A stretch of DNA of 59,089 bases. Source: an uncultured Bacilli bacterium (GTDB taxonomy: Bacteria > Bacillota_I > Bacilli_A > RF39 > UBA660). Location: assembly GCA_934179675.1 (NCBI GenBank), contig CAKPQS010000003.1, forward strand, positions 1 through 59,089, read 5' to 3'. Within the stretch, counting starts at the first letter, position 1, and each line of letters opens with the position of its first letter. Position numbers and translations under genes: made by a program. Under the pieces are notes generated by a model. The model did no database searches. It saw only the letters and a list, made by a program, of their open reading frames with translations, and was not told the DNA's origin. Of this stretch, positions 1 to 41,090 are shown piece after piece.

Positions 1-697
1 GATATTGTCTTGTAGTATACATTTTTTTCTTGAATTGCATAGTAATATTACCAACATTAGTAGCACGAATAGTAATACTATTACCATTAACTTGGTATTC
101 AGCATTATTACTCATTATTACATCATAATTTGATAATACATTATTAGTATCAGTTAGTGTTATTTTATCACCAACTTTCATAGTAATTGTTTGACCATTA
201 AAGGATGGTTTTACATAATGACTATTAACTAAATTCATAATTGTATTTTTTTCAGCAGATACATCCATGTTTGTTCCTGCTCCCCATCTTTGAGTAGAGT
301 AAGAAATATTATAACTTCCTGCCTGTTCCCATAAAAGGGCTTGAGTTGCTAATCTATAATTTAATGTTTGATGATTTGGATAATCATAACCATAATAAGC
401 AATTAGTAACATTTTTAATTTTTGTTCATTAGAATAATTGGTATTAGACATATCACCAACTGTATAATTATTAGTTCCCTCTGGAACGCCAGGTTCGATA
501 CAATAAGCAACACGATCACCAAAATAATAATCTTGAGTATACCAACTATGAGCTGATTCATTTGGACTAGTTCTTGTCCAAAAGTAACCAGACTTATTCA
601 TTGTTAAAGTAGCTCCTTGGGCATATACAGATGTAGTAGAAACGCATCCAATTATGACTCCAAGTAGTAATAATAAATTTTTTATTTTATTTTTCAT
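1..697 (-). CDS. Exported surface protein, N-terminal part (C-terminus runs off the window); candidate Cys-Gln thioester (TED/TQXA-like) adhesin domain
   Basis: Absent from the ORF track because it is open at the window edge. My translation from the ATG at 697 (GGAGG upstream) gives MKNKIKNLLLLLGVIIGCVSTTSVYAQGATL, a signal peptide. It continues ...DRVAYCIEPGVPEG... and ...RLATQALLWEQ..., resembling the [YF]C-hydrophobic and TQxx-hydrophobic-W motifs of Gram-positive thioester domains. The Cys-Gln spacing (about 53 aa) is shorter than in the characterised examples I recall, so the domain call is tentative. Confidence 0.45.
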   Translation of the reverse strand, partial: MKNKIKNLLLLLGVIIGCVSTTSVYAQGATLTMNKSGYFWTRTSPNESAHSWYTQDYYFGDRVAYCIEPGVPEGTNNYTVGDMSNTNYSNEQKLKMLLIAYYGYDYPNHQTLNYRLATQALLWEQAGSYNISYSTQRWGAGTNMDVSAEKNTIMNLVNSHYVKPSFNGQTITMKVGDKITLTDTNNVLSNYDVIMSNNAEYQVNGNSITIRATNVGNITMQFKKKMYTTRQY

Positions 698-809
698 TTT
701 CAATTATTTCCTCCTCTCGTGAAATTTTACTTGATAAGGCACAAGCAGACCATAAAAAAAGCACTAGTAAAATTAATAGTGCAATTCCAATAAATAATAA
801 TATTTTCAT
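687..809 (-). CDS. Small hydrophobic peptide (40 aa), hypothetical
   Basis: My own translation gives MKILLFIGIALLILLVLFLWSACALSSKISREEEIIENEK. GGAGGAAAAAATG precedes it, and its stop overlaps the start of the downstream adhesin-like ORF. No family recognised. Confidence 0.25.
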   Translation of the reverse strand: MKILLFIGIALLILLVLFLWSACALSSKISREEEIIENEK

Positions 810-841
810 TTTTTCCTCCAAAATAAAAAAGACTAGAATAT

Positions 842-1465
842 CTAATCTTTATACTTATTACAATTTCCAGATGAACAATTAATATATAAATATTCACCTA
901 AAACTGTACCTTGACCATCAACAACATCCATACACCAACTATTAATAATATCAACTGTATCTTTCAAAGAAATTCTTTCACTAGCAGAAAGACAAGCATC
1001 CATAGAACTATATTCGATTTTACCTTTATGAAAAGAATAATTAAAATCATTTGGATTAGGAATACCAATATAGGAATCATTATTTTCTTTTACAGTTTCT
1101 TCTTTAATTTGATTATTATTAGATTGTGATTGATTTTGTTGATTATTATTTTGTTTTATTCCATTTGAATTATTTGATGTAGTGGAAGTAGTAGAAGTGT
1201 TAGAAGATACTTTATTTTCTTTTATATCTTCCTTAGGGTTTTCTACAACATCAACACTTTCATTTTTCTCTTTTAGTAATTCTTTTTGATTTTCTGTTTT
1301 TTCTGGAATATCTTTTTGTTTTAATTTTTCTTTGGATTCTGTATTGCTAGTAGAATTTTTTGATAAGTTATTTTTACTAGAATTGATTTTACCAATAAAG
1401 ATAAAAGTAGTAGTTAATATCACTATTATAGCAATAATGCTAATTTTAAACATTTTTGATTTCAT
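842..1465 (-). CDS. Membrane-anchored/exported protein with a low-complexity S/T/N/Q-rich linker and a Cys-containing C-terminal domain, hypothetical
   Basis: Track ORF of 207 aa. It has an N-terminal hydrophobic anchor (FKISIIAIIVILTTTFIFIG), a long polar low-complexity stretch, then a C-terminal roughly 80 aa with 4 Cys. No family recognised. Confidence 0.5.
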   Translation of the reverse strand: MKSKMFKISIIAIIVILTTTFIFIGKINSSKNNLSKNSTSNTESKEKLKQKDIPEKTENQKELLKEKNESVDVVENPKEDIKENKVSSNTSTTSTTSNNSNGIKQNNNQQNQSQSNNNQIKEETVKENNDSYIGIPNPNDFNYSFHKGKIEYSSMDACLSASERISLKDTVDIINSWCMDVVDGQGTVLGEYLYINCSSGNCNKYKD

Positions 1466-1581
1466 AATATCACCTTTGTTTGAATGATATACTACCTAAA
1501 AACTTTTGTCAAATCATTAAGAATTACCATTTACGCAATCATAAAACCACCTCCTTTAATGCAATAAAAAAAGTTGCATTT

Positions 1582-2118
1582 CTACAACTTAAATTCTTTC
1601 ATAAATTTTTCAAACTTTTCTTCCTCGTTAGGATCAGCAAATCCGTCATCATCATTATATACTTCTATATCTAAGGCACAAGCAAATTTCACAATACAAC
1701 TTTTCTTGATTGGCAACAACCCACAATAAGAGCATCCAATCTCTTTATAAGCTCTATACTCTGGTTCTTGTCTATATAAACAAATTGTATAATAAATTAA
1801 TTCTTCTTGACTAAAGTGCTTAGTTATAGAGCAAATCTTTTTGGATAATGTTTGATATTCTGTATCATTATCTATAAATGCATCTAATTTAGTGTAATCA
1901 TTAATACCTTTTGTTCTTTCATCAACAAAAATATATTTATAGGTACTAGTAATTTTTATAGGCATTTCACAATAATTTTTACTTTTTAATTTTCTATATT
2001 TTTTCATAAACATACAGACACGATAGAAAGTTCTTTCTATATCATAGTCTAATAAATCAAATTTAGATAATAGTTCATTATCCAATATATCTTCTTTTTC
2101 TTGTATTGTGTTATTCAT
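1582..2118 (-). CDS. Putative ArpU-like phage/ICE transcriptional regulator
   Basis: 178 aa. The overall pattern (N-terminal ...KKYRKLK..., C-terminal ...EELIYYTICLYRQEPEYRAYKEIGCS...CIVKFACALDI) resembles the ArpU late-gene regulator family as I remember it. Not verified by search. Confidence 0.35.
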   Translation of the reverse strand: MNNTIQEKEDILDNELLSKFDLLDYDIERTFYRVCMFMKKYRKLKSKNYCEMPIKITSTYKYIFVDERTKGINDYTKLDAFIDNDTEYQTLSKKICSITKHFSQEELIYYTICLYRQEPEYRAYKEIGCSYCGLLPIKKSCIVKFACALDIEVYNDDDGFADPNEEEKFEKFMKEFKL

Positions 2119-2149
2119 TTTAACCCTCCAACTTGAATATAGCCAATAG

Positions 2150-2205
2150 AAAAGGAGATGCTTATAAGGGGAATTTAACCCTATATAAGTATCTCCTCGT
2201 TTTTT
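2150..2205. terminator. Strong hairpin with T-runs on both strands, lying in the leader of the ArpU-like gene (bidirectional intrinsic terminator or attenuator)
   Basis: GGAGATGCTTATAAGGG (2154..2170) pairs with CCCTATATAAGTATCTCC (2179..2196), with one bulge and one G-T pair. The plus strand continues TCGTTTTTT. The minus strand continues TTTTCTATT. Confidence 0.6.
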
Positions 2206-2351
2206 AGAGAAACTAAATTTAAGTTATAAACACTAAAATAAGATTTATGATTTTGCATAGTTATCACCTTACCTTAAGGTGAAGTCATCAAATACTACCA
2301 CAATCACTTCACACATAACAAAAATTTTTCTTTTTCCAAATATTGGCTATT

Positions 2352-2380
2352 ATTCTAATATTTTTATTTATTATTGTCAA
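2352..2380 (-). promoter_or_regulatory. Sigma-A-type promoter (TTGACA-17 nt-TAGAAT)
   Basis: On the minus strand, -35 TTGACA lies at 2375..2380 and -10 TAGAAT at 2352..2357, with a 17-nt spacer. It reads toward the ArpU-like gene. Confidence 0.5.
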
Positions 2381-2455
2381 TGGCTTTTATCAAAAAAACT
2401 AACAATAAAAAAAAGATGACTTGTTTCTTTCGATACAATTCATCGATTTTACTAT

Positions 2456-2483
2456 ATTTTACCACTTGACTTTTATAAGTCAA
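2456..2483 (-). promoter_or_regulatory. Sigma-A-type promoter with its -35 inside an 18-bp perfect palindrome (candidate operator)
   Basis: On the minus strand, TTGACT lies at 2478..2483, followed by a 16-nt spacer and TGGTAAAAT (-10 at 2456..2461). The palindrome TTGACTTTTATAAGTCAA spans 2466..2483. Confidence 0.45.
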
Positions 2484-2491
2484 TGATTAAA

Positions 2492-2535
2492 TTTTTCTTT
2501 TTTTTCTTTTTTTTTCTTTTTTTTTCTTTTTTTTA
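2492..2535. repeat. T-tract/C microsatellite (T5 C T8 C T9 C T9 C T8)
   Basis: Read directly from the sequence. C occurs at 2497, 2506, 2516 and 2526 within an otherwise pure T run, immediately 3' of the stop of ORF 2540..2893 on the minus strand. Confidence 0.9.
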
Positions 2536-2539
2536 CTAA

Positions 2540-2893
2540 TTATAAATCTCGCACTAAATCTTCAATTTTTTCTTTAGAAAAGGTAGATGCTTCAAGTATC
2601 ATCTTATCATAATAAGTATTAGCATCTTTTTCATCAAAGAATGTTTTTAAATTAAATTTCCCATATAAATCATCTGTTTTTTTATCTTGAATAAGCATAT
2701 ATACAACATATTCATTATTATTAAGATTACTAGCATTAGAAGTAATAATTATCATAACAATACTTACTATATAAGAATCTAATTCTATTTCTTTATGTTT
2801 ATTTGTTGAATTAACTTTAATATTTTTTAATTCACTTATGATATCCCTTTTTGATTCTACATTTTTATTAACTACTCTCATAATGCACCTCAA
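2540..2893 (-). CDS. Hypothetical protein (117 aa)
   Basis: Track ORF. No motif recognised. Confidence 0.4.
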   Translation of the reverse strand: MRCIMRVVNKNVESKRDIISELKNIKVNSTNKHKEIELDSYIVSIVMIIITSNASNLNNNEYVVYMLIQDKKTDDLYGKFNLKTFFDEKDANTYYDKMILEASTFSKEKIEDLVRDL

Positions 2894-2966
2894 AACTTAA
2901 TTTACTATTATTATACACAATTATTAAAAGAAAGAAATACTTTCATAAAATATTTCTTTATAATTT

Positions 2967-3215
2967 TTAATTAGCATTGATTTTTTTACTGAAACGATTA
3001 ATAACTTTGTTACATGATTCTTCTATCATTGCATATACTAAAAAAGGCAATATTGCAACTGATAATAATGCTTCGATAAATAATGGACATCCTGTCATTG
3101 AAAAAGGAGATGCTTCTAAGGTATATCCTAAATTTGTATCAAAATATAATCCTTTAATTAGGAATACTAGAAATATAAATGCTCCCAATATACTTATTGT
3201 TTTTTTTATACTCAT
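2967..3215 (-). CDS. Small membrane protein (82 aa, 2 predicted TM helices), hypothetical
   Basis: Two hydrophobic stretches: ISILGAFIFLVFLIKGL and LFIEALLSVAILPFLVYAMI. Confidence 0.4.
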   Translation of the reverse strand: MSIKKTISILGAFIFLVFLIKGLYFDTNLGYTLEASPFSMTGCPLFIEALLSVAILPFLVYAMIEESCNKVINRFSKKINAN

Positions 3216-3370
3216 TTTATTTCACCACCAAACTATTTAAGATTTACTACATATATTAATATGATAACCGATTTCTATAAAAAATCAACACTTTTACCTT
3301 AAACAGTTGTGCAAAAGACAATTATTTAACACTTGTATAAAATAAATTGTAGAAAGTGAGGTAAGATTTT

Positions 3371-3649
3371 ATGAATAATAGTCGTGAAATACTATCAATG
3401 AATTTAAAATATTATAGACAAAAATATAACTTATCTCAAGAAAAGTTTGCTGAGAAAGTTGGAAGTAATTTAGTTTATATAAATGAATTAGAAAATTGTA
3501 AGAGGAAACCTACAATTGAAATGCTTGATAAAATAGCAGAAGGTATGAACAAAAATATTGATCGTAAGTTAAAAATGACTGCATCAGATTTACTAAAATA
3601 CGATAAAACTCATAGAACTACATTTAATAGAATTGATGAAAGAAAATAA
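3371..3649 (+). CDS. XRE-family helix-turn-helix transcriptional regulator
   Basis: 92 aa. LKYYRQKYNLSQEKFAEKVGSNLVYINELENCKRKPTIEMLDKIAEGM is a typical Cro/C1 HTH. GAGG lies 9 nt upstream of the ATG. Confidence 0.8.
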   Translation: MNNSREILSMNLKYYRQKYNLSQEKFAEKVGSNLVYINELENCKRKPTIEMLDKIAEGMNKNIDRKLKMTASDLLKYDKTHRTTFNRIDERK

Positions 3650-3673
3650 GATTTGTTTTCTTTTTATTTTATA

Positions 3674-3949
3674 TTAATCTAAATTATAAAAATCAAGTGT
3701 TTCTAAATTGTTAACTCTAATATTATATTTTATATCTAATAGTGCAATAGCATTATTTTTTATTTGCTCTAAATCTTTTTTTGAATATCTAATCTTGTGT
3801 AGACTTTTAAATATTTCACTAGCACTTATATTATGATATTTATAATTTGAAAATTGATAATTTAAAAGCAACAAATGTGCTAGCAATTCAGTATCATATA
3901 ATTTTTTGATTCTTTTTTCATCTCTTAGAAATAACTTATCCATACTCAT
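3674..3949 (-). CDS. Hypothetical protein (91 aa), the first gene inside the inserted block next to the spoVD breakpoint
   Basis: Track ORF. GGAGGATTTTTTATG serves as the RBS and start, and the gene has its own promoter at 3971..3999. Confidence 0.4.
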   Translation of the reverse strand: MSMDKLFLRDEKRIKKLYDTELLAHLLLLNYQFSNYKYHNISASEIFKSLHKIRYSKKDLEQIKNNAIALLDIKYNIRVNNLETLDFYNLD

Positions 3950-3970
3950 AAAAAATCCTCCATTGAGTGA

Positions 3971-3999
3971 ATGATAGCTCCAATAAAAATGTTTGTCAA
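3971..3999 (-). promoter_or_regulatory. Sigma-A-type promoter (TTGACA-17 nt-TATCAT)
   Basis: On the minus strand, -35 lies at 3994..3999 and -10 at 3971..3976. Confidence 0.5.
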
Positions 4000-4045
4000 A
4001 TCATTATTCTTTATGCATATTTACACCAAATATGAATATCATTAA

Positions 4046-4966
4046 TTAGGTATCGCTTTCGGGTGGTACAATATTAAAAGTCGAACCTGGCTCATAAGTC
4101 ATCCAAACAGGCAAATTGCGATTAATGGTTTCAATATCATAATCTTTATAACTACTAGGATCAAAACTAGGTCTTGAAGCCATAGCCAGTATTTCCCCAG
4201 TTTTAGGATTCATTACAATGCCTAAAGCATGTTCTGGATCATATTTACTAACAGCATTATTAAGTTCTCTCTCCAAAGATTTTTGAATATCTAAATTAAT
4301 AGTTAAAGTCATATTAATACCATCGGTAGGTTTCACATAAACCTCTGAAAGTTCAAGTTTTTTACCCTTGGCATCAGAATAATATTTAATCGCACCATAT
4401 GCTCCCGTTAAATATTTATCATACATTAACTCAAGACCACTTAATCCCTGATTATCAACACCAACAAAACCAATTGTTTGGCTAAGCATTGACCCATATA
4501 AATAATTCCTTTTTGCTTCTTTCAAAAGATAAACACCAGAAAGTTTTAAATTATCAATTTTATCAGCAATATCAAATGATAATTTTCTTCCCTCTGGATG
4601 TACTCTCTCAATCGAAGAATGCTTATTAACATGTTTATACATTTCATCATAATCAACTTTTAAAATATCCGCTAATTTTTTAGCCGTATCTTCCTTATTC
4701 TCAATTTGATTAGGAATTAACACTAAAGAAACAGTAGTCGTATTATTAACCAAAACATTACCATTTGCATCATAAATAACACCCCTATTACCCTCAATAG
4801 GTAAATTACGACTCCATAAGCTATTAGCGCTCTTACTTAATTTTTTATAACTAAACACCTGTACATAAAATATTTTACCTATAATCAAAAATGTAATAAG
4901 TATAAATATCAAACCAACTATCTTAATTCTTATATGTATATTTTTAAAAAACATATTATTCACCAT
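4046..4966 (-). pseudogene. spoVD: 5' half of a spoVD-like class B penicillin-binding protein, truncated at the SxxK motif
   Basis: The 306-aa ORF has an N-terminal TM helix and the PBP dimerisation domain. It is collinear (from memory) with B. subtilis SpoVD through ...FDPSSY...NRNLPVWMTYEPGSTF. SpoVD continues STFKIITL, whereas this ORF reads STFNIVPPESDT-stop. The whole transpeptidase domain and the PASTA domain are missing. Confidence 0.75.
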
Positions 4967-4978
4967 TTAAAATATATG

Positions 4979-7010: not shown

Positions 7011-7880
7011 TCAAGACCTTGGATGTGTTTTTAAATAAACTTCTCTTAAACGTTCATTTGATATATGTGTATAAATTTGTGTTGTACCTAAATCAGCATG
7101 TCCTAAAAGTTCTTGTACAGCTTTTAAATCAGCACCATTATCAAGTAAATGAGTAGCAAATGTATGTCTTAATGTATGAGGACTAACATGCTTTTGAATA
7201 CTTGTTTTATTCATATATTTATTTATTATATTTCTTACACTTCGATCAGTTAATTTTTTACCATTTAAATTTAATATTAAATATTCTGATAAGTTGGAAT
7301 CTTTAATTAAATTCCTTGAATTATTTAAATATTTATTTAAGATATCTTCACATACATGACCATATATAACAATTCTTTCTTTTTTTCCTTTTCCTAATAT
7401 ACGAATTATTCTATTATTAAAATCAATATCCTTAATTTTAATATTAACAAGTTCACTTACTCTTATACCTGTAGAATAAAGTAACTCTATAACAATATGA
7501 TCACGAATACCTTGAATAGTATCATCTATTTTACTTAACAATTCTTCTACTTCATTTACATATAAAAATTTAGGTAATAATTTTTCTTTTTTGGGGTTAC
7601 TAATCAAAACCATTGGATTAGATTTAATTCTTTTTTTCTTATATAAAAATTTGTAAAAACTTCTAATAGCACTTATTCTCCTAGAAATAGTAGTTGTTTT
7701 ATAATTTAATTTATTTAAATACTCTACATATTCTCTAATTATTTTATAATCAACATCGTAATTAATAATTCCTTTATGATCTAAAAAAAACTTATATTCA
7801 TCTAAATCTATTTCATAATTTTTAATTGTATTATCAGAATAATTTCTTACTGTTTTTAAATATTCTATAAATTCTCTCAT
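7011..7880 (-). CDS. Tyrosine site-specific recombinase, XerC/XerD family
   Basis: 289 aa. LYSTGIRVSE (Arg), HTLRHTFATHLL (HxxR) and LGHADLGTTQIYTH (catalytic Tyr) are present. I cannot distinguish XerC from XerD by eye. Confidence 0.85.
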   Translation of the reverse strand: MREFIEYLKTVRNYSDNTIKNYEIDLDEYKFFLDHKGIINYDVDYKIIREYVEYLNKLNYKTTTISRRISAIRSFYKFLYKKKRIKSNPMVLISNPKKEKLLPKFLYVNEVEELLSKIDDTIQGIRDHIVIELLYSTGIRVSELVNIKIKDIDFNNRIIRILGKGKKERIVIYGHVCEDILNKYLNNSRNLIKDSNLSEYLILNLNGKKLTDRSVRNIINKYMNKTSIQKHVSPHTLRHTFATHLLDNGADLKAVQELLGHADLGTTQIYTHISNERLREVYLKTHPRS

Positions 7881-18182: not shown

Positions 18183-19073
18183 CTACTTTGAAAGTAATTT
18201 AAATTCTTTTTTTGAATCTTCATCAGATTTCATATATTTATTTAAACCTGATATAAAACCATTACTAGTTATTAAATATTTTAACAATTTTAATTTACTA
18301 ACTTCAATTTGTTTATTTAAATTAGAACCAACTGACTCCATTTTTATATCACAAGTTTTATTATTATTTTTATTATACTCCCTCAAAACAGCACTATTCA
18401 TTTTTTCTAAATTTGTAGGAATTTTTTCATTTTCATGAACAATTACATCAAATTTAAGTGAATTAATTTTAGCATATAACTCATTTATTGTTGTACCAGC
18501 AGTTGTATAACTTACATTAAAAGGAGCATAAAAATTATCATAAGAATATCTAATAGAATATTCAACATTTGTAGTTTCCTTTAAATAATAATCCAAAACA
18601 AATTTAGGTAATCTACGTATTCTTATAAAAAATGGTGTATATTTTTGACATGATGGACAAGTAATATCAAATTTAAAATAGCCATCGATTTTATTATCGC
18701 TATAAAAAGTACCATTTTTAAATCCTAAATCACTTGTACAAATAAATGTAAGATTCTTCATAACACGATAGTCAACAGCAAATGGTTCAGTACAATTTTT
18801 ACATGCACAAGCATTATAGTACTTTTTACCCTCACCATCATAATCAACTGTTTTCATATAATCAATTTTATCATCTTTGCCAAATCTACCAAAGAGAATT
18901 CTTGGTGGTAAACCATAAGGCATTGGACCCCATCCAGGTCCCCATCCTGGACCCCAACCTGGTCCACGACCATAATATCCACCTGGTCCATAACCATAAT
19001 ATCCTCGAGGTCTTCCTGGTCCATGACAATTACATCCATCATGTCCCCCATGATCTCCTGGCCCATATAACAT
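18183..19073 (-). CDS. Protein with a Gly/Pro/Trp/Tyr/His-rich N-terminal low-complexity region and a Cys-containing C-terminal domain, hypothetical (coat-protein-like composition)
   Basis: The likely start is the ATG at 19073 (GAGGTGA 5 nt upstream), not the track GTG at 19082. The N-terminus reads MLYGPGDHGGHDGCNCHGPGRPRGYYGYGPGGYYGRGPGWGPGWGPGWGPMPYGLPP. CACKNC...CPSCQ follows later. Confidence 0.6.
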   Translation of the reverse strand: MLYGPGDHGGHDGCNCHGPGRPRGYYGYGPGGYYGRGPGWGPGWGPGWGPMPYGLPPRILFGRFGKDDKIDYMKTVDYDGEGKKYYNACACKNCTEPFAVDYRVMKNLTFICTSDLGFKNGTFYSDNKIDGYFKFDITCPSCQKYTPFFIRIRRLPKFVLDYYLKETTNVEYSIRYSYDNFYAPFNVSYTTAGTTINELYAKINSLKFDVIVHENEKIPTNLEKMNSAVLREYNKNNNKTCDIKMESVGSNLNKQIEVSKLKLLKYLITSNGFISGLNKYMKSDEDSKKEFKLLSK

Positions 19074-19184
19074 AATAATCACCTCATCACTATATAAATA
19101 ATACTTTATTTATAAAAATATGTCAAATTTAAATAAATTTTTTTATTTTAGCAAAAAAAATGATATAATGATTATGGTGATATT

Positions 19185-20870
19185 ATGGAAAATAAAAAAC
19201 AATCAAAAATATTAATTATTTTAGCGCTAATAGTTGCATTAAGCTTTTTAGTTTTTCTCGTAATTAATATTAAAAAAGAAAATCTTAATTTACTCATTAC
19301 AGCTCTATTAATTAGTTTAATGTCAATTCTATTATTAATTCCAACCAAAAAAAATAAAATTTATAACTTTATTGCACTCCTTATTATTGGATTAACAGGA
19401 TTTAATGCATACACATTTGCGCGACCAATAAATATAAAAAATGAAACTAATTATATTTTAAATTTACAAAATAAATCATTAACTGATGCTTTGAATTATG
19501 CAAAAGAAAATAATATAAATATAGTTGAAAAATATGATTACAGTGATTATATTGCCAAATATTATATTATAAATCAAAACATAATAAATGAACCATTAAA
19601 TAATATAAAAGAACTAGAACTAATTATATCTAAAGGACCAAACTATGATTTAACAACAACAATTCCATCATTTGTAGGCGAAAATATAGATGAATTAATC
19701 AAATTTATAAATAATAATTATCTAAATAATGTTGAAATAAACTTTATTACAAATGAAAATGAACCAAATACAATAATAAGTCAATCATTAACAGGAAACA
19801 TAAAAAGAAATGATAAATTAGTAATCGAAGTTGCCAAAGCCGAATTTAAAGAAATAGAAATGACTAATTTAGTAAACAAATCATTATTTGAGGCTAAACT
19901 ATGGTTAGATATGAATAACATAAAATATAAAGTTGAATATGATTATAATGAAATTGATAAAAATTATATATTTAAACAAAGCATTAATGAAAATACTAAA
20001 TTAACAGAAAATGATAATGTTACAATATATGTTTCCAAAGGAAAAAGTATAACTGTTCCAAATTTAAAAGAAATGTCTAAAGAAGAAATAACAAAATGGA
20101 TAACAGATAATAACTTAAATGTTGAATACAAAGAAGATTATAATAAAGAATATGAAATGGGCAAAATAATAGATACTAATTATAAAAAAAATGATGTTAT
20201 TGAACAAGGAACAACAATTATAATAACAACAAGTAAAGGAACACTTAAAATGATTAAATTTACTACTCTATCTGATTTTAAAATATGGGCAGCAAATAAT
20301 AATATAAAATATGATATAAATTATAGTTTTAGTAATACTGTTCCTAAAAATGGTTTAATAAAATCATCTCATAACGAAGAAGACGTTATAGCCGATTCTG
20401 ATACTATAATATTAACAATATCAAACGGAAAAGCAGTAACAATGCCTAATTTTAAAGGAATGAAGAAATCAGAAATTGAAAATAAATGTAATTCGTTAAA
20501 TCTTAACTGTTCATTTTATTACTATGGCTACACAATTGGAACAGAAAAAGATATTGCTATAACACAAACAATAAATGCATCTAAACAAGTAGCAACAGGA
20601 ACATATGTAAAAATATCATTAAGTAGTGGTATTGCAAAAACATTTACAATAGAAATAAATGAAACAGATTTAGTTATTAATAATGCATCTAAAACAATTG
20701 AAAATCTGAAAAAATTATTTAATCAAAAATATCCAGGAGTTATATTTACATTTACAACTAAAGCAAGTAATACATATAATAATGCTGGATTCATCCATGA
20801 AAATTCTAATGTAAAAAATGGTACAAAAGTAGTACAAGGTAAAACATACACAGTAACAATAACAAGTTAA
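19185..20870 (+). CDS. Membrane protein with multiple PASTA-like repeats and no kinase or PBP domain
   Basis: 561 aa with three N-terminal TM helices. These are followed by repeats of about 65-70 aa such as ISKGPNYDLTTTIPSFVGENIDEL..., YVSKGKSITVPNLKEMSKEEITKWITDNNL... and ISNGKAVTMPNFKGMKKSEIENKCNSLNL..., which fit the PASTA pattern (vP.l.G.s..ea...l...gl). Confidence 0.6.
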   Translation: MENKKQSKILIILALIVALSFLVFLVINIKKENLNLLITALLISLMSILLLIPTKKNKIYNFIALLIIGLTGFNAYTFARPINIKNETNYILNLQNKSLTDALNYAKENNINIVEKYDYSDYIAKYYIINQNIINEPLNNIKELELIISKGPNYDLTTTIPSFVGENIDELIKFINNNYLNNVEINFITNENEPNTIISQSLTGNIKRNDKLVIEVAKAEFKEIEMTNLVNKSLFEAKLWLDMNNIKYKVEYDYNEIDKNYIFKQSINENTKLTENDNVTIYVSKGKSITVPNLKEMSKEEITKWITDNNLNVEYKEDYNKEYEMGKIIDTNYKKNDVIEQGTTIIITTSKGTLKMIKFTTLSDFKIWAANNNIKYDINYSFSNTVPKNGLIKSSHNEEDVIADSDTIILTISNGKAVTMPNFKGMKKSEIENKCNSLNLNCSFYYYGYTIGTEKDIAITQTINASKQVATGTYVKISLSSGIAKTFTIEINETDLVINNASKTIENLKKLFNQKYPGVIFTFTTKASNTYNNAGFIHENSNVKNGTKVVQGKTYTVTITS

Positions 20871-34740: not shown

Positions 34741-36141
34741 ATGGATCCATTATTAATTATTGATAAACTTAAAAAAGATACTAATAATAATTCATTTATT
34801 GTTATAAGAGAAAAAATAATTAAAAAAAATAAAATATATATTATTTTTAATGATAGTTTAATTTCTAATGATAAAGTAAGTGATTTTATAATTAGAAGTT
34901 TAGATAATATTAAAGATATAAATGATATAAAAAATAATTTAGATAGTTGCAAGTATAAAGAAATAAATAATTATAATGATTTTTGTACATACTTAAATAA
35001 TGGTTTTACAATTATTTTATTTAATTGTATAGGACTTGCTTTTGAAACAAAAGGCAATTTAAAAAGATCTATATCACAGCCTACTACGGAAAATGCTATA
35101 AGGGGCGCTAAAGATGCTCTTGTAGAAGATTATCAAACAAATATAGGTTTAATAAAGAAAAGAATAAAGTCTAATAGTTTATGGGTTGAAGAAGTTGAAA
35201 AAGGAAAGTATACAAATACTAAAATTGGTGTTTGTTATGTTAATGGTGTTGTTAAAGAAGAACTAGTTAAAAAAATAATGAATAAAATTAATTCAATTAA
35301 TATTGATGGTATTATTACATCAGATGATTTAAAACTTAATTTAGAAAAAGGAATAAAATCAATTTTACCTACTATTACTACAACAGAACGACCTGATAGA
35401 ATTGCTAAAGCCATTTTAAGGGGTAAAGTTGTTATTATAGTTGATAATTGTCCTTTTGCTTTAATTGTTCCAGGTTTATTTGTTGATTATTTTAAGGCTC
35501 CTGAAGATTGGTATGGAAATAGTATAAATGTTTCAATTACAAGAATGATTAAATATATTGCTTTTTTTATTTCTATTTTAACACCAGCAATTTATGTAGC
35601 ATTAATAACATATAATCAGGAAATTATACCAACTGATTTACTAATTAGTTTTTCTGTTCAAAGAGATGGTGTACCTTTTCCTGCATTTATAGAAGCTTTT
35701 ATGATGATTATTGCTTTTGAAATTATTAAGGAAAGTGAATATCGTGTTCCTAATTCAAATGGTTCTACTTTATCTATTGTTGGTGCTTTAATATTAGGTG
35801 ATGCTGCTGTTTCTGCTGGGATTGTTTCGCCAATTATGATAATTGTTATAGCTGTTACTGCTATATCATCACTTCCCTTTTCTGAACCAGAATTTACAAC
35901 GTCAATAAGAACATATCGTCTTATTTTTATGCTTGGTGGATCATTGCTTGGTATTGTTGGTATAGTAGCAATTTTTATATTTTTTATTATTAGAATAACA
36001 AGTATTGAAACATTTGATATTCCTTTTCTAACACCTATTGAACCTTTTGATAAAAATGGTTTTATGAATACGATTATAAAATTACCTAATAATAAAAGAA
36101 TGAAGGTTTTATCTAATAATAAATTTAGAGGTGAAAAATGA
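34741..36141 (+). CDS. Spore germination protein, GerA-family A subunit
   Basis: 466 aa. TENAIRGAKDALVEDYQTNIGLIKKRI, TTERPDRIAKAIL.GKVVIIVDNCPFALIVP and C-terminal TM helices are present. It ends in TGA, overlapped by the next ATG. Confidence 0.85.
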   Translation: MDPLLIIDKLKKDTNNNSFIVIREKIIKKNKIYIIFNDSLISNDKVSDFIIRSLDNIKDINDIKNNLDSCKYKEINNYNDFCTYLNNGFTIILFNCIGLAFETKGNLKRSISQPTTENAIRGAKDALVEDYQTNIGLIKKRIKSNSLWVEEVEKGKYTNTKIGVCYVNGVVKEELVKKIMNKINSINIDGIITSDDLKLNLEKGIKSILPTITTTERPDRIAKAILRGKVVIIVDNCPFALIVPGLFVDYFKAPEDWYGNSINVSITRMIKYIAFFISILTPAIYVALITYNQEIIPTDLLISFSVQRDGVPFPAFIEAFMMIIAFEIIKESEYRVPNSNGSTLSIVGALILGDAAVSAGIVSPIMIIVIAVTAISSLPFSEPEFTTSIRTYRLIFMLGGSLLGIVGIVAIFIFFIIRITSIETFDIPFLTPIEPFDKNGFMNTIIKLPNNKRMKVLSNNKFRGEK

Positions 36142-37295
36142 AAAAATTATTTATATTTTTAATGATCTTATTAATGAGTGGGTGCAATTATAGAGAACTG
36201 GATAAGATTGCAATTACTGTTGGTTGTGGGCTAGAAAAAGTAGAAGATGGTTATAAAATTACTGCTCAAATTGCTGATACACAAAAACAAGGTAATTCTA
36301 ATAGTTCGTCTTCTCCTGTTAGGTTTAAAAATTATTCTTATAGTGCTAAAACAATTCATGAGGCTGCAAGAGGAATATTAACTAAACTACCTAAAAAATC
36401 ATATACTAATCATTTACAAGTTCTGATTATTGATGAAAATATTGCTAAAAATAATATAGATGATATTATTGATTTTTGGTTTAGAGAGATTGAAATTCGA
36501 AATGATTTTTATGTTTTTGTTAGTAAAGATTCATCACCTACTGATGTTTTAGCAGTATTAACGCAAATATATCCTATCAATTCAGTTGGTATTAGAAATT
36601 TAATTGAAAATAATTTTAAATATTTAGGTGGTACTGTACTTACTACTTTTGATGATTTATCAGAGTCGTATATTAGTAAAACGAAAGAAATTATACTACC
36701 TTCTATTAGTGTTTTAGGTAAAGATGGTGATAAAAAGGATAATTTAGAATCTTCTATTCCTGAATCGCTTATTTCTTTAGATTATACTGCTTATTTTAAG
36801 GATAATAAATTTATTGGTTATTTAGATAAAAATAATACTATTATTTATAATTTAATTATTGATAAATTAAAAACTACTATTATCGGTTATGAATGTATGG
36901 AAAATAAATATATAACTTATGAGATAATTAATAGTAAATCAAGTATTAATGTTAATAAAAATAAACCTATTATTGATATTAATATTAAAGCTAAAGGTAA
37001 TTTAACTTCTATTATGTGTGATTATGATATATCGAATGATGATGGTATTAAAAGGATAGAAAATGAGGCTAGTTTAGATTTAAAAGAAAAAATAATTAAT
37101 TTATTTGAATTTTCTAAAGAAAATAATACTGATATATTTTCTTTTACTGATTATTTTTATAAGTTTAATAATAAATATTATAAGAAAATAGCAAATAATG
37201 ATTTTTATAAAGATTTAATTATTAATGTAAATGTTAATTTAGATATTTTTGAGAAAGGTAATAGTTTAAAGGTAATTGAAAATGAAAAAAATTAG
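36138..37295 (+). CDS. Spore germination lipoprotein, Ger(x)C family
   Basis: 385 aa with lipobox LLMSGC followed by NYRELDKIAI, the typical N-terminus of GerAC-type proteins. Confidence 0.8.
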   Translation: MKKLFIFLMILLMSGCNYRELDKIAITVGCGLEKVEDGYKITAQIADTQKQGNSNSSSSPVRFKNYSYSAKTIHEAARGILTKLPKKSYTNHLQVLIIDENIAKNNIDDIIDFWFREIEIRNDFYVFVSKDSSPTDVLAVLTQIYPINSVGIRNLIENNFKYLGGTVLTTFDDLSESYISKTKEIILPSISVLGKDGDKKDNLESSIPESLISLDYTAYFKDNKFIGYLDKNNTIIYNLIIDKLKTTIIGYECMENKYITYEIINSKSSINVNKNKPIIDINIKAKGNLTSIMCDYDISNDDGIKRIENEASLDLKEKIINLFEFSKENNTDIFSFTDYFYKFNNKYYKKIANNDFYKDLIINVNVNLDIFEKGNSLKVIENEKN

Positions 37296-38325
37296 CAATT
37301 TTAATTTGATTAGTTTGATGATTATTGTTTTATTTACGACTGTATATGGGGAAGGAATATATGTTATTATAAAAGAATCTGGTATTGATGCTTATATTGG
37401 TGTTTTATTTAGTATTATTATTTCCATTCCTTTTCTTTTAATTTTTAATTTTTTATTTAATTATGAACCTTCTTTAAATATCTTTGAAAAAAATAAAAAG
37501 TTATTTAAATATTCTTTTATTCCTAATTTAATTTTTGTTTTATTTTCTATTCTTATTTCATGTATCCAATTTTTTAATTTAACAAATTTTCTAGTATCGC
37601 AATTTCTTTCTGAAACAAATCCTTTTATTATTGGTTTTATATTTTCTGTTTTAATAATTTATTTATGTTCAAAGGATTTATCATCTTTATTTAAAACATC
37701 TACTATATTTTTAATTATAAATTTTAATTTATTTTTTATTTCTATTTTAGGTTTATTTAATGAATTTTCATTTAAAAATTTATTTCCTATTTTAGAAAAT
37801 GGTATATATCCTCCTTTTATTTCTGCGATTAAAATATTTTTTATTAATATATGTCCTTTATTTTTAGTTTTATTTGTTCCTAAAGATAAGATAATTAATT
37901 ATAATAAAAATAATACTTTTATTTCTTATTTTGTTTATGTTATTTTATCTTTATTAATGTTAATTTTTACTATTGGTGTTCTTGGTGGTGATCTTGTTAA
38001 ATTATATCAGTATCCTGAATATATTGTTTTAAGAAGAATTAATTTTTTGAATTTTTTAACAAGGATTGAAAATATATTATTTATTCAATGGATTTTTGGG
38101 TTATTTATTCTTATGTCTTTTAGTGCTTTTATTGTTAAAGAAAAGTTAAAATTTAAATATAGTAATATTATTATTGGTTTATTAATTTTAATTTTATCTT
38201 TAAATTGTTTTAAATCTTTAACGATATTTAATGAATTTATGTATTATATTTATCCTTTTATTTCATTTATTTTTGTTATTTATATTATTATATTGTTTAT
38301 TAAGTGCAAAATTAAAACTAGCTAA
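37276..38325 (+). CDS. Spore germination permease, GerA-family B subunit (APC-like, about 10 TM helices)
   Basis: 349 aa and polytopic. It overlaps the C-subunit gene by 20 nt. The call rests on architecture and operon context. Confidence 0.7.
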   Translation: MKMKKISNFNLISLMIIVLFTTVYGEGIYVIIKESGIDAYIGVLFSIIISIPFLLIFNFLFNYEPSLNIFEKNKKLFKYSFIPNLIFVLFSILISCIQFFNLTNFLVSQFLSETNPFIIGFIFSVLIIYLCSKDLSSLFKTSTIFLIINFNLFFISILGLFNEFSFKNLFPILENGIYPPFISAIKIFFINICPLFLVLFVPKDKIINYNKNNTFISYFVYVILSLLMLIFTIGVLGGDLVKLYQYPEYIVLRRINFLNFLTRIENILFIQWIFGLFILMSFSAFIVKEKLKFKYSNIIIGLLILILSLNCFKSLTIFNEFMYYIYPFISFIFVIYIIILFIKCKIKTS

Positions 38326-39023: not shown

Positions 39024-41090
39024 CTATATTTGACTTCCTTTAACTATATTACTATTAGATGATTTAGTTGCAATCATTCGATCAACTAAAGATGATGCAG
39101 AAGCTATATAATTTATTGTTACCTTAGAACCTGATTTAGTTGCTGCTCCGCTAAACATATTACTACAACTCCAAACATAACAAGAACTCTTTATATTTAA
39201 TGTAGTTGTTAAAGATGAACAGTTGGAAAACATATTACTCATATCAGATACATTCTCCATACCAAAATTTCTTAAATCTAAACTCGTTAATGATGAACAA
39301 GAATCGAACATATTACCCGTTTTTGTTACTTTTTCACCATTAAAACTACTTAAATCCAGACTTGTTAAAGATGAACATTGATAAAACATTTTAGACATAT
39401 CATCTACTTTTGCCGTATTAAAATTACTTAAATTTAAACTTGTTAAGGACGAACAACCTCTAAACATATCATACATAGCCGTTACATTTGCAGTATTAAA
39501 GTTACTTAAATTTAAACTTGTTAAAGATGAACATCCAGAAAACATAGTTCCCATATCTATTACTTTTGCTGTATTAAAACTACTTAAATCTAAATTTGTT
39601 AAAGATGTGCAATTATAAAACATACCATTCACATATTTTAAATTTGCAGTATTAAAATTATTTAAAACCAAATTTTTTAACAATGTACACTCACTAAACA
39701 TATCACCCATAGTTGCTACATTAACCGTATTAAAACTACTTAAATCTAAACTTGTTAAGGATGAACAATTATAAAACATATATGACATATTTGTTACATT
39801 TGCAGTATTAAAATTACTTAAATTTAAACTTGTTAAGGATGAACATTCAGAAAATATACTAGACATATTTGTTACATTTGTTGTATTAAAACTGCTTAAG
39901 TCCAAATTTATTAATGATGAACAAGAAGAAAACATGTCACTCATATCTTTTACCTTTTCATTATTAAAGTTCTTTAAAACTAAGTTCTTTAAAGATGAAC
40001 AAGAAGAAAACATATAGTTCATATCTGTTACATTTGAGGTATTAAGTCCACTTAAATTTAAACTTGTTAAAGATGAACATCCACTAAACATAGAAGCCAT
40101 ATTGGTTACATTAGCTGTATTAATATTACTTAAATCTAAACTTATTAATGATGAACAACCACCAAACATACTATACATATTTGTTACATTTGCCGTATTA
40201 AAACCACTCAAATCTAAACTTGTTAAAGATAAACAACTAGAAAACATCACACTCATTTTTGTTGCTTTTGAAGTATTAAAATTATCATTAAAATTTATTT
40301 GAGTTAAATTAGATATTCTACCATTGTCGTACTTATAAAACGAGAATATAGAAGTGCAATCTGATGGTGCAAAAATCAGTGCATCACTTACAATATATAA
40401 ATTATATAAAGGTTTTGTATTATCAGTACTATCTTTTAAACCAGTATCAATTAAATATCCATACACTTTCTTCTTTTGAGTTGGACTTTCAGATATATCC
40501 CAACATAAATTTTCTTCAGTACAATTACTTGGTAAATTACTTAAATCATTACCAAAGTCAATAGTTCTTATATAAGGTTTATAATTCTTAGTCCAAAATT
40601 CTGTACCACCATTTGCACTAGAATCATCACTATATCCGTTCTTCATTGTTGCTGTTTCCATTATAGTACCTTTAGTTTTTATTAAAATATCACTATTTAT
40701 AGTAGTATCAGACTTATAATATAATGTAACACTACTACCAGTATTACTATTTATAAATCCACTATATATATTATTATTAATTAATTTAGTATAACTACTA
40801 TCTTTATAAAACTTAATAGAGCTATCCCCTATTAGTTCAATAGTATAATCTGCTCCACTTTTAGATCCAGTAGTATTAATATTAACATTAAATGATCCAC
40901 TAGTACCACTTAAATGTAATTTATAACCTCCATCTTCAATAATACCATTATCTACACTTACTTTAAATACCCAATCTTTTACATTAGCTGTTATATTAGC
41001 TACAATAGTATTTTTAAATGATGAATAAGTATAACTTAATGTTACAAATAATAAACATAATATTGATAAAAATAAAATTTTCTTCTTCAT
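39024..41090 (-). CDS. BspA-family / DUF285 leucine-rich-repeat surface protein
   Basis: 688 aa. After a signal peptide come a TasA-like N-terminal domain, a middle region, and 14-15 tandem 25-aa units of the form MF..CSSLTSLDLS.FNT.NVT.M. Confidence 0.85.
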   Translation of the reverse strand: MKKKILFLSILCLLFVTLSYTYSSFKNTIVANITANVKDWVFKVSVDNGIIEDGGYKLHLSGTSGSFNVNINTTGSKSGADYTIELIGDSSIKFYKDSSYTKLINNNIYSGFINSNTGSSVTLYYKSDTTINSDILIKTKGTIMETATMKNGYSDDSSANGGTEFWTKNYKPYIRTIDFGNDLSNLPSNCTEENLCWDISESPTQKKKVYGYLIDTGLKDSTDNTKPLYNLYIVSDALIFAPSDCTSIFSFYKYDNGRISNLTQINFNDNFNTSKATKMSVMFSSCLSLTSLDLSGFNTANVTNMYSMFGGCSSLISLDLSNINTANVTNMASMFSGCSSLTSLNLSGLNTSNVTDMNYMFSSCSSLKNLVLKNFNNEKVKDMSDMFSSCSSLINLDLSSFNTTNVTNMSSIFSECSSLTSLNLSNFNTANVTNMSYMFYNCSSLTSLDLSSFNTVNVATMGDMFSECTLLKNLVLNNFNTANLKYVNGMFYNCTSLTNLDLSSFNTAKVIDMGTMFSGCSSLTSLNLSNFNTANVTAMYDMFRGCSSLTSLNLSNFNTAKVDDMSKMFYQCSSLTSLDLSSFNGEKVTKTGNMFDSCSSLTSLDLRNFGMENVSDMSNMFSNCSSLTTTLNIKSSCYVWSCSNMFSGAATKSGSKVTINYIASASSLVDRMIATKSSNSNIVKGSQI
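39155..40358 (-). repeat. Tandem 75-bp coding repeats (about 14-15 units) inside the BspA-like gene
   Basis: Long near-identical DNA stretches recur. For example, aaatttaaacttgttaaagatgaacatcc is present at about 39515 and about 40055, and acttaaatctaaacttgttaa variants recur throughout. Confidence 0.85.

Follow-up and report, generated by a model that had tools for sequence, protein, structure and literature searches.

A large serine recombinase element splits the sporulation gene spoVD at its SxxK motif in uncultured gut Bacilli and may be a skin-like intervening element

Near the start of a 59,089-nucleotide (nt) stretch of DNA from an uncultured Bacilli bacterium (contig CAKPQS010000003.1 of assembly GCA_934179675.1; this whole stretch is referred to below as the window), a gene resembling spoVD, which encodes a penicillin-binding protein (PBP) of sporulation, breaks off inside its catalytic SxxK motif and is followed by unrelated DNA. 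The locus raises the question of whether this is a dead gene fragment or a gene split by an element that can be excised, as skin is from sigK and SPbeta from spsM. The initial annotation had left both possibilities standing, and each computational check run here favoured the second. The window contains the left junction (attL) of a mobile element which bears a large serine recombinase (LSR) and is integrated in spoVD, most likely as an intervening element of the skin/SPbeta type, a reading to which we give a probability of about 0.6. Its structural part, namely, a split gene, an LSR element and junctions that can be rejoined, is close to certain, and sporulation-linked excision, suggested by analogy, is credited with even odds or slightly better. 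The labels L and P designate the contigs or genomes and the proteins or alleles compared, respectively, and the insertion sites in spoVD are numbered 1 (SxxK), 2 (SxN) and 3 (TPIQ).

The open reading frame (ORF) at 4046..4966 on the minus strand codes for 306 amino acids (aa). In domain searches it matched PBP_dimer at residues 57-205, and it covers only positions 4-46 of the 299 positions of the Transpeptidase profile. Its best NCBIfam match, TIGR02214 (spoVD_pbp; profile positions 5-294 of 636), agrees with the original description of the ORF as the N-terminal half of SpoVD. Encoded in the spoVD 5' segment are the transmembrane segment, the PBP dimerisation domain and the first part of the transpeptidase domain, as far as Ser-Thr-Phe of SxxK; the ATG at 4954 (MFFKNIH) is the probable conserved start. 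The ORF then adds nine element-encoded codons and a stop, so that the product ends with NRNLPVWMTYEPGSTF followed by NIVPPESDT (YEPGSTF-NIVPPESDT-stop); the reading of intact alleles of the same species is STFKIITLAS. At the DNA level, the junction in the window consists of GGTTCGACTTTTAA followed by TATTGTACCACCCGAAAGCGATACCTAA, and the corresponding intact allele, L085, reads GGTTCGACTTTTAAAATTATTACTTTAGC; after GGTTCGACTTTTAA, the intact allele goes on with AATTATTACTTTAGC. The last bases common to the two are AA at 4075-4074, and the foreign DNA occupies 1..4073. The breakpoint had been placed at about 4073..4075, in the Lys codon, and this was right to the base, since the DNA comparison puts the host end at 4074. 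The identical 306-aa product is encoded on 11 contigs from independent samples and the same junction is present in many other hosts; therefore, the junction is not an assembly artefact.

The intact orthologue in L011 (634 aa) scores 716 bits against TIGR02214, for which the cut-off is 688, and has a single C-terminal PASTA domain. Compared with proteins of a Bacillus species, the spoVD products of the relatives share 50-56% identity with SpoVD and 37% with the adjacent PBP2B paralogue. These similarities identify the interrupted gene as a spoVD orthologue. In B. subtilis, the mother-cell gene spoVD is under the control of sigma-E and is needed to form the cortex (PMC517825).

A 3' fragment of the gene in the same orientation, which the split-gene reading calls for, is present on contigs L082-84 of the same species. 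Protein P0251 (329 aa), encoded by this 3' half, is collinear with SpoVD, intact, and starts exactly at the Lys codon. In L082-84, the 3' end of an LSR gene (...NVYLSYDID, stop) is followed by TTAGTTATCGTTTTCGGGGGTTACTTTC, the dinucleotide AA and AATTATTAC. The sequence TTAGTTATCGTTTTCGGGGGTTACTTTC is an inverted copy of the element arm in the window, and it is joined via AA to the 3' part of spoVD (AATTATTACTTTAGC). Contigs L047 and L048 (P0126), which had been considered as the source of the window's own 3' half, were rejected; they belong to another species and are about 88% identical to the 3' half of the window species. A recombinase had been expected at the far end of the element, and in L051 and L095 an LSR gene ends about 55 nt before the right junction (attR); the last 10 codons of the LSR are visible in the same-species contig L083. 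The full protein (L051, L095) consists of 576 aa with Resolvase, Recombinase and Zn_ribbon domains, and among solved structures the nearest to it is 3g13, the recombinase of a conjugative transposon. An entire element of 2.8 kb, including both junctions, is present on contig L095, and its two arms are the same as those of the window and of L082-84. The short repeat anticipated at the breakpoint proved to be the 2-bp core AA common to attL and attR, around which the arms, GGTATCG(C/T)TTTCGGG(T/G)G(G/T)TAC, are inverted.

Recombination in silico of attL from the window with attR from L082-84 at AA restores the uninterrupted site (attB) exactly and yields an ORF of 638 aa. The rejoined ORF is identical to intact alleles at 635 of 638 residues (P0244) and at 1907 of 1917 nt (L085; 99.5% DNA identity). 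The predicted attP of the element is TTAGTTATCGTTTTCGGGGGTTACTTTCAATATTGTACCACCCGAAAGCGATACCTAA.

The intact 638-aa alleles P0243, P0244 and P0245 occur on 31, 25 and 16 contigs, respectively. They are 99% identical to the 5' part in the window, matching it at 297-298 of 300 residues, and they belong to the same 90% identity cluster, which also contains fragments of 422, 294 and 329 aa. The protein database shows one representative per 90% cluster, and this representative can be a fragment; split spoVD genes thus appear as families of 300-, 360- and 418-aa 'PBPs', with the full-length alleles seen only via the cluster members. The impression that full-length relatives are absent (none of the best 120 homologues of the 5' part exceeds 477 aa) was an artefact of this kind, the 638-aa alleles being hidden behind shorter representatives, and the apparently universal interruption of the gene was rejected because the listing of cluster members revealed these alleles. 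They also dispose of the naturally short protein family that the initial annotation had kept as an alternative.

The interruption of spoVD is recurrent. Among 20 species-representative genomes of related Bacilli, the gene was interrupted in 12 and intact in eight. Three insertion points were found: after the STF codons of SxxK (site 1), after the Asn codon of the SxN motif (site 2), and in the TPIQ codons after GQGxSVTP (site 3). In L028, L029, L094 and CAG:884, two sites are occupied at once, which leaves a middle exon of 59 codons, and CAG:884 strains with 100% identical 5' parts differ in the site occupied. In the species of the window, intact, site-1-cut and site-3-cut alleles are all present. 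The inserts comprise minimal elements of 2.8-4.4 kb, elements of about 11 kb and elements of more than 13 kb. In the minimal ones, the LSR gene is accompanied by a gene for a Fic protein, a histidine phosphatase or an AAA ATPase, with a sigma-70-like gene in one case. The minimal site-1 elements (L028 10972..12390 and L027 11035..11985) encode a Fic-domain protein; those of L028 and L029 also encode a 472-aa sigma-70-like protein with regions 2 and 4, and thus a sigma factor gene resides inside an element splitting a sporulation gene.

The LSR gene mostly lies on the element's margin, adjoining the 3' fragment. The LSRs of all three sites share 32-58% identity with one another; among annotated phages, the best-matching LSR reaches 41%. 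Each LSR gene examined has a conserved ORF of 45-57 aa directly upstream; this ORF bears the motif L..IIN..LY..G.IT.E.F, looks co-transcribed with the LSR gene and displays only sub-threshold SHOCT similarity. We regard its product as a candidate directionality factor.

Selection on the interrupted alleles was compared in the species representatives L027, L028 and L029, which carry the same minimal element. The ratio of non-synonymous to synonymous substitution rates (dN/dS) was 0.01-0.06 for exon 1 of the interrupted spoVD, at dS up to 0.58, and 0.00-0.03 for exon 2. The Fic and LSR genes of the element (dS 0.06-0.43) are also under purifying selection. No frameshift or internal stop was found in any spoVD fragment examined. 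Such purifying selection would be expected if the gene is rebuilt and used, and repeated recent insertions would still be compatible with it.

The element left end seen in the window (Table 1) runs into further genes in other contigs. The adhesin gene, whose first 232 codons correspond to window positions 697..1, is followed by a sortase gene in L001 and L088; next come genes for a resolvase-like protein with DUF3846, a single-stranded DNA-binding protein (SSB), a protein with a weak T4SS_pilin match and a DUF8208 protein, and then variable cargo. Left-end and right-end loci do not overlap, and the element exceeds 13 kb. Beyond the regulator and the recombinases there were no PHROG matches and hence no phage structural genes, and the att arm does not occur in IMG/VR; the element is not a prophage. 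We term the element conjugative-element-like; neither an ATPase of a type IV secretion system (T4SS) nor a relaxase came to light in the 13 kb recovered. The site-1 cargo in L088 (20474..20624) and the region downstream of the site-3 junction in L007 (19353..21257) contain EF-G/TetM-family GTPase genes, and these cargo GTPases could be candidate ribosomal-protection tetracycline resistance genes. Self-splicing introns or inteins were rejected: the Rfam scan gave no match in L001 or L007, a stop occurs nine codons into the insert, and the insert contains many independent genes.

The initial annotation of this end was upheld with regard to the consensus promoter and the XRE repressor-type gene and found no support from Pfam or PHROGs with regard to an ArpU-like regulator. 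The view that the DNA beyond the breakpoint is imported also stands. The element occurs in six different flanking contexts with completely different flanking genes, and the 207-aa exported protein lies downstream of the truncated spoVD in all six contigs inspected. Hosts with spoVD 5' parts that are only 68-84% identical (that is, differ by 16-32%) carry the 4,073-bp element segment at 95-99.9% identity, which indicates that the element has spread between hosts recently and horizontally, each time into this site.

Table 1. Features at the spoVD junction and in the element left end of the window
Feature	Position	Strand	Remarks
Element left end	1..4073		Runs off window start; continues for at least 13 kb in other contigs
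SpaA/Cna-B-type surface adhesin, N-terminal part	1..697	-	817-aa gene runs off window; L001 14270..16723 mapped
Predicted exported protein, 207 aa	842..1465	-	Identical protein indexed in 158 blocks of contig collection
Element ORF, 178 aa	1582..2118	-	No Pfam/PHROGs support for 'ArpU-like'
Element ORF, 117 aa (113 aa as called in other contigs)	2540..2893	-	No family match
Hydrophobic element ORF, 82 aa	2967..3215	-	No family match
XRE/HTH_3 transcriptional regulator, 92 aa	3371..3649	+	Domain search
First element ORF, 91 aa	3674..3949	-	No family match
Sigma-70-type promoter-like site TTGACA-17-TATCAT	3971..3999	-	Reads into element; 11/12 matches
Element-side arm of attL (P' arm), TATTGTACCACCCGAAAGCGATACCTAA	4044..4073	-	Inverted copy TTAGTTATCGTTTTCGGGGGTTAC is the attR arm in same-species contigs and L095
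AA dinucleotide common to attB, attL and attR	4074..4075	-	Inferred crossover core, TTT-AAA (Phe-Lys) codons of SxxK
spoVD 5' segment	4074..4966	-	Codons 1-297 and first two bases of Lys codon
Conserved -10-like motif CATATATT	4971..4978	-	24 nt upstream of MFFKNIH start codon

The same arms were also encountered outside spoVD. In L073 (69-89) and L074 (10027-10047), both of assembly QWCN01, a gene for a VirD4/TraG-like coupling protein is split into two halves bordered by these arms, with junctions reading ...PASRIF followed by NI... and F followed by NIARIAPDKTRGSF...; a family-B element is thus inserted in a gene of another conjugative element, which represents a secondary target. In L056, L064, L070 and L071, an attL-type arm identical to that of the window abuts a different, more GC-rich gene (...NVACAQDTPEVVADIRRKF...), and only a C-terminal LSR fragment is nearby; this junction is either another target or a rearranged remnant. 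The 4349-nt contig L066 contains, in this order, an LSR 3' end, the P arm, AA, a diverged arm of the P' type, an adhesin gene of 760 aa and the start of a second LSR gene (74% identical); it has the appearance of two related elements arrayed in tandem or of a hybrid attP.

The host belongs to a group of uncultured gut 'Bacilli bacterium' metagenome-assembled genomes related to Firmicutes bacterium CAG:884. In line with the earlier statement that the organism keeps sporulation genes, the window encodes a gerA-type germinant receptor operon Ger(x)A/C/B (34741-38325), in which Ger(x)C exceeds its cut-off, a pair of M23 and M50 genes (spoIVFA/FB-like) after mreC/mreD, and SpoVB-like and SigH-like proteins; such a gene content would be that of an endospore former. 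The locus order around the intact gene is sigH, tyrosine recombinase, tdk, tgt, spoVD, M23, PHP, (ftsW/spoVE) and (mraY). In CAG:884-like strains (L007 7974..9415), tgt and spoVD are separated by an AbiEi/AbiEii toxin-antitoxin pair and a NUDIX gene, which the species of the window lacks.

A terminator of tgt, reported directly upstream of spoVD, was not recovered: a site scan of the window gave no terminator-like site between the two genes. The accompanying remark that spoVD has no obvious promoter needs softening, as a conserved motif, CATA[ACT]AnT, is present 5' of the start codon. It lies 23-28 nt upstream of the conserved start in six of seven gut-Bacilli upstream contexts and 45 nt upstream in the Bacillus species, at a chance expectation of 0.02 per 30-nt window. 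We take this motif to resemble the -10 element of mother-cell sigma-E promoters.

The statement that no recombinase is encoded in the window holds for the element part and fails for the window as a whole. A tyrosine recombinase gene is located at 7011..7880 on the minus strand, between sigH and tdk, 2 kb from the junction; its product has Phage_integrase and SAM-like domains and similarity to MrpR_C_cat. Since this gene also adjoins intact spoVD alleles (L085-87) and is found in other species, it is a host XerC/D-like gene outside the element.

In the mechanism that we propose, the LSR would integrate the element at the AA core in the Phe-Lys codons of SxxK, and the LSR together with a directionality factor, probably the product of the small ORF, would excise it, restoring spoVD when needed. 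By analogy with skin in sigK, SPbeta in spsM, vfbin, vrin, gin and yin, we infer that excision would be mother-cell-specific, taking place most likely in this terminally differentiated cell, in which spoVD is expressed, while the forespore would keep the integrated copy. As spoVD acts only in the mother cell, such excision would cost the germ line nothing. A wider version of this scheme, which is possible but tentative, would make spoVD a multi-site landing pad across the clade, with related serine recombinases specialised on SxxK, SxN and TPIQ. Cortex formation would then need one or two, perhaps three, mother-cell excisions, and the larger elements, with their possible tetracycline-resistance-type GTPase cargo, would persist in the germ line without burdening sporulation and at the same time move from species to species.

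Several observations weigh against an intervening element tied to sporulation. The element in the window is active and moves horizontally, and the purpose of its excision may therefore be transfer and not sporulation. Other contigs, not the molecule of the window, supplied the far junction and the LSR, and the sporulation ability of the uncultured host is deduced from gene content alone. Neither a circular attP nor an excised form was found; a metagenome scan for the arm pattern gave only attL-type, attR-type and tandem junctions. The att arm likewise had no match in IMG/VR. Contig ends near the junctions were rejected as evidence of excision, because the breaks fall in sequence common to elements with the same arm and not at the crossover. 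The small ORF matched no known directionality factor, and no consistent sigma-E- or sigma-K-like promoter was recognised upstream of the operon of the small ORF and the LSR gene across the element families. Among the cluster members listed for the species of the window, intact alleles are more frequent than interrupted ones (about 76 contigs versus 26), which means that the insertion there has not become fixed and is not required.

Some of these points would be accommodated by a plain insertional knock-out, an explanation which we consider unlikely but the most durable of the rivals. The conserved SxxK site would then be a safe landing site in a gene dispensable for vegetative growth, the carriers would be cortex-defective or asporogenous, and excision would occur at a low rate for transfer only. 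Active spread between hosts, the presence of the LSR module in the coupling protein gene (L073, L074) and in another gene (L056, L064, L070, L071), the majority of intact alleles in the window species and an LSR operon without an assignable sporulation-type promoter are all consistent with a knock-out. However, interruptions, some of them double, affect 12 of the 20 related species, and minimal elements of 2.8-4.4 kb without recognisable transfer genes persist in several of them. Both gene halves are always intact, and the dN/dS of 0.01-0.06 among lineages with the same minimal element is hard to square with long-term loss of function. In addition, the inserts in all well-studied mother-cell-gene precedents are excised during sporulation.

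An improbable alternative is a stochastic reversible switch of the 'active lysogeny' type, in which integration and excision in vegetative cells, without mother-cell specificity, would generate subpopulations able and unable to sporulate. The coexistence of intact, site-1-cut and site-3-cut alleles in one species, the different sites occupied in CAG:884 strains with identical 5' parts and the apparent co-transcription of the small ORF and the LSR gene would suit such a switch. Strain-level gain of elements explains the polymorphism equally well, the arm-pattern scan gave no attP junction, and germ-line excision would tend to lose minimal elements unable to re-enter, yet such elements persist. 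Finally, a dead relic, a naturally short protein or an assembly chimera, to which the single junction visible in the window and a first homologue list without a full-length protein seemed to point, is refuted by the 638-aa alleles in the same 90% cluster (the list having shown cluster representatives only), by the repetition of the junction on many independent contigs and by the intact 3' half in the same species.

As an intervening element, the spoVD insert would join a known class. The established targets, mostly in cultured Bacillus and Clostridium, are sigK, spsM, spoVFB, spoVR, gerE and yabG. In the skin elements described by Galperin et al., the recombinase is located at the edge, by the 3' fragment, and the elements differ greatly in size and in their variable cargo, with only the recombinase shared. 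As with skin in sigK (SpoIVCA in B. subtilis; CD1231 with the recombination directionality factor (RDF) CD1234 in C. difficile), the insert lies in a mother-cell gene whose ORF is restored when the insert is excised precisely. Unlike skin, which is a fixed, defective prophage, the element in the window is mobile between species, the target is spoVD with three alternative sites in one gene, sometimes two of them occupied, and excision tied to sporulation is a proposal by analogy.

The closer parallel in terms of mobility is SPbeta in spsM, with the SprA integrase and the SprB RDF, which is likewise an active LSR-bearing mobile element in a mother-cell sporulation gene. In SPbeta the same att recombination serves both the life cycle of the element and the reconstitution of the gene, and the spoVD element may be alike in this respect. 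Unlike SPbeta, it is not phage-like, having adhesin, sortase, SSB and T4SS-pilin-like genes and a best phage LSR match of 41%. Small or non-prophage elements also interrupt other mother-cell genes that are rebuilt in the course of sporulation, namely, gin in gerE (B. cereus), yin in yabG (C. botulinum), vfbin in spoVFB and vrin in spoVR. Like gin, the spoVD elements of 2.8-4.4 kb have no phage genes; gin uses several recombinases, whereas each spoVD element has a single LSR and the small conserved ORF. The target gene and the host clade differ from those of gin, yin, vfbin and vrin. The heterocyst elements in cyanobacterial nifD, fdxN and hupL are excised under developmental control in a cell that is terminally differentiated, and a genome, or in some cases a single operon, contains several of them; of their recombinases, XisA belongs to the tyrosine type and XisF to the serine type. 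Phylum, recombinases and developmental programme are all different in the case of the spoVD elements.

A literature search found no paper joining spoVD with a serine recombinase or naming it as a target of intervening elements, and the portions consulted of the literature on spoVD together with intervening elements, prophage excision or integrative and conjugative elements describe no interrupted spoVD. As far as can be told, the mechanism is of a known kind, and the target gene, the host clade, the three-site pattern with double occupancy and the non-phage nature of the elements are new.

Three further genes of the window are unrelated to the element. At 39024..41090 (minus strand), a 688-aa surface protein is encoded, with about 15 tandem PARCEL repeats of 78 nt (26 aa) at 39206-40363 (TIGR02167, 380 bits). 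The 561-aa membrane protein encoded at 19185..20870 (plus strand) contains several PASTA repeats and matches only the C-terminal PASTA part of the Stk1/PknB model; no kinase domain was found in it. The gene at 18183..19082 (minus strand) codes for a 299-aa protein with a Gly/Pro/Trp-rich N-terminus (GPGWGPGWGPGW...).

The elements provide a set of related LSRs with defined, distinct att sites with 2-bp cores and a candidate small cofactor. Their hosts are abundant uncultured Bacilli of the human gut, in which the frequency of interruption (12 of 20 species) is unusually high. If excision is developmental, spore formation, and hence transmission between hosts, would depend in these bacteria on recombinases of mobile elements; if it is not, a widespread element would switch off sporulation in gut bacteria. 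Either outcome affects the scoring of sporulation capacity from genomes, in which split spoVD genes are called as truncated PBPs.

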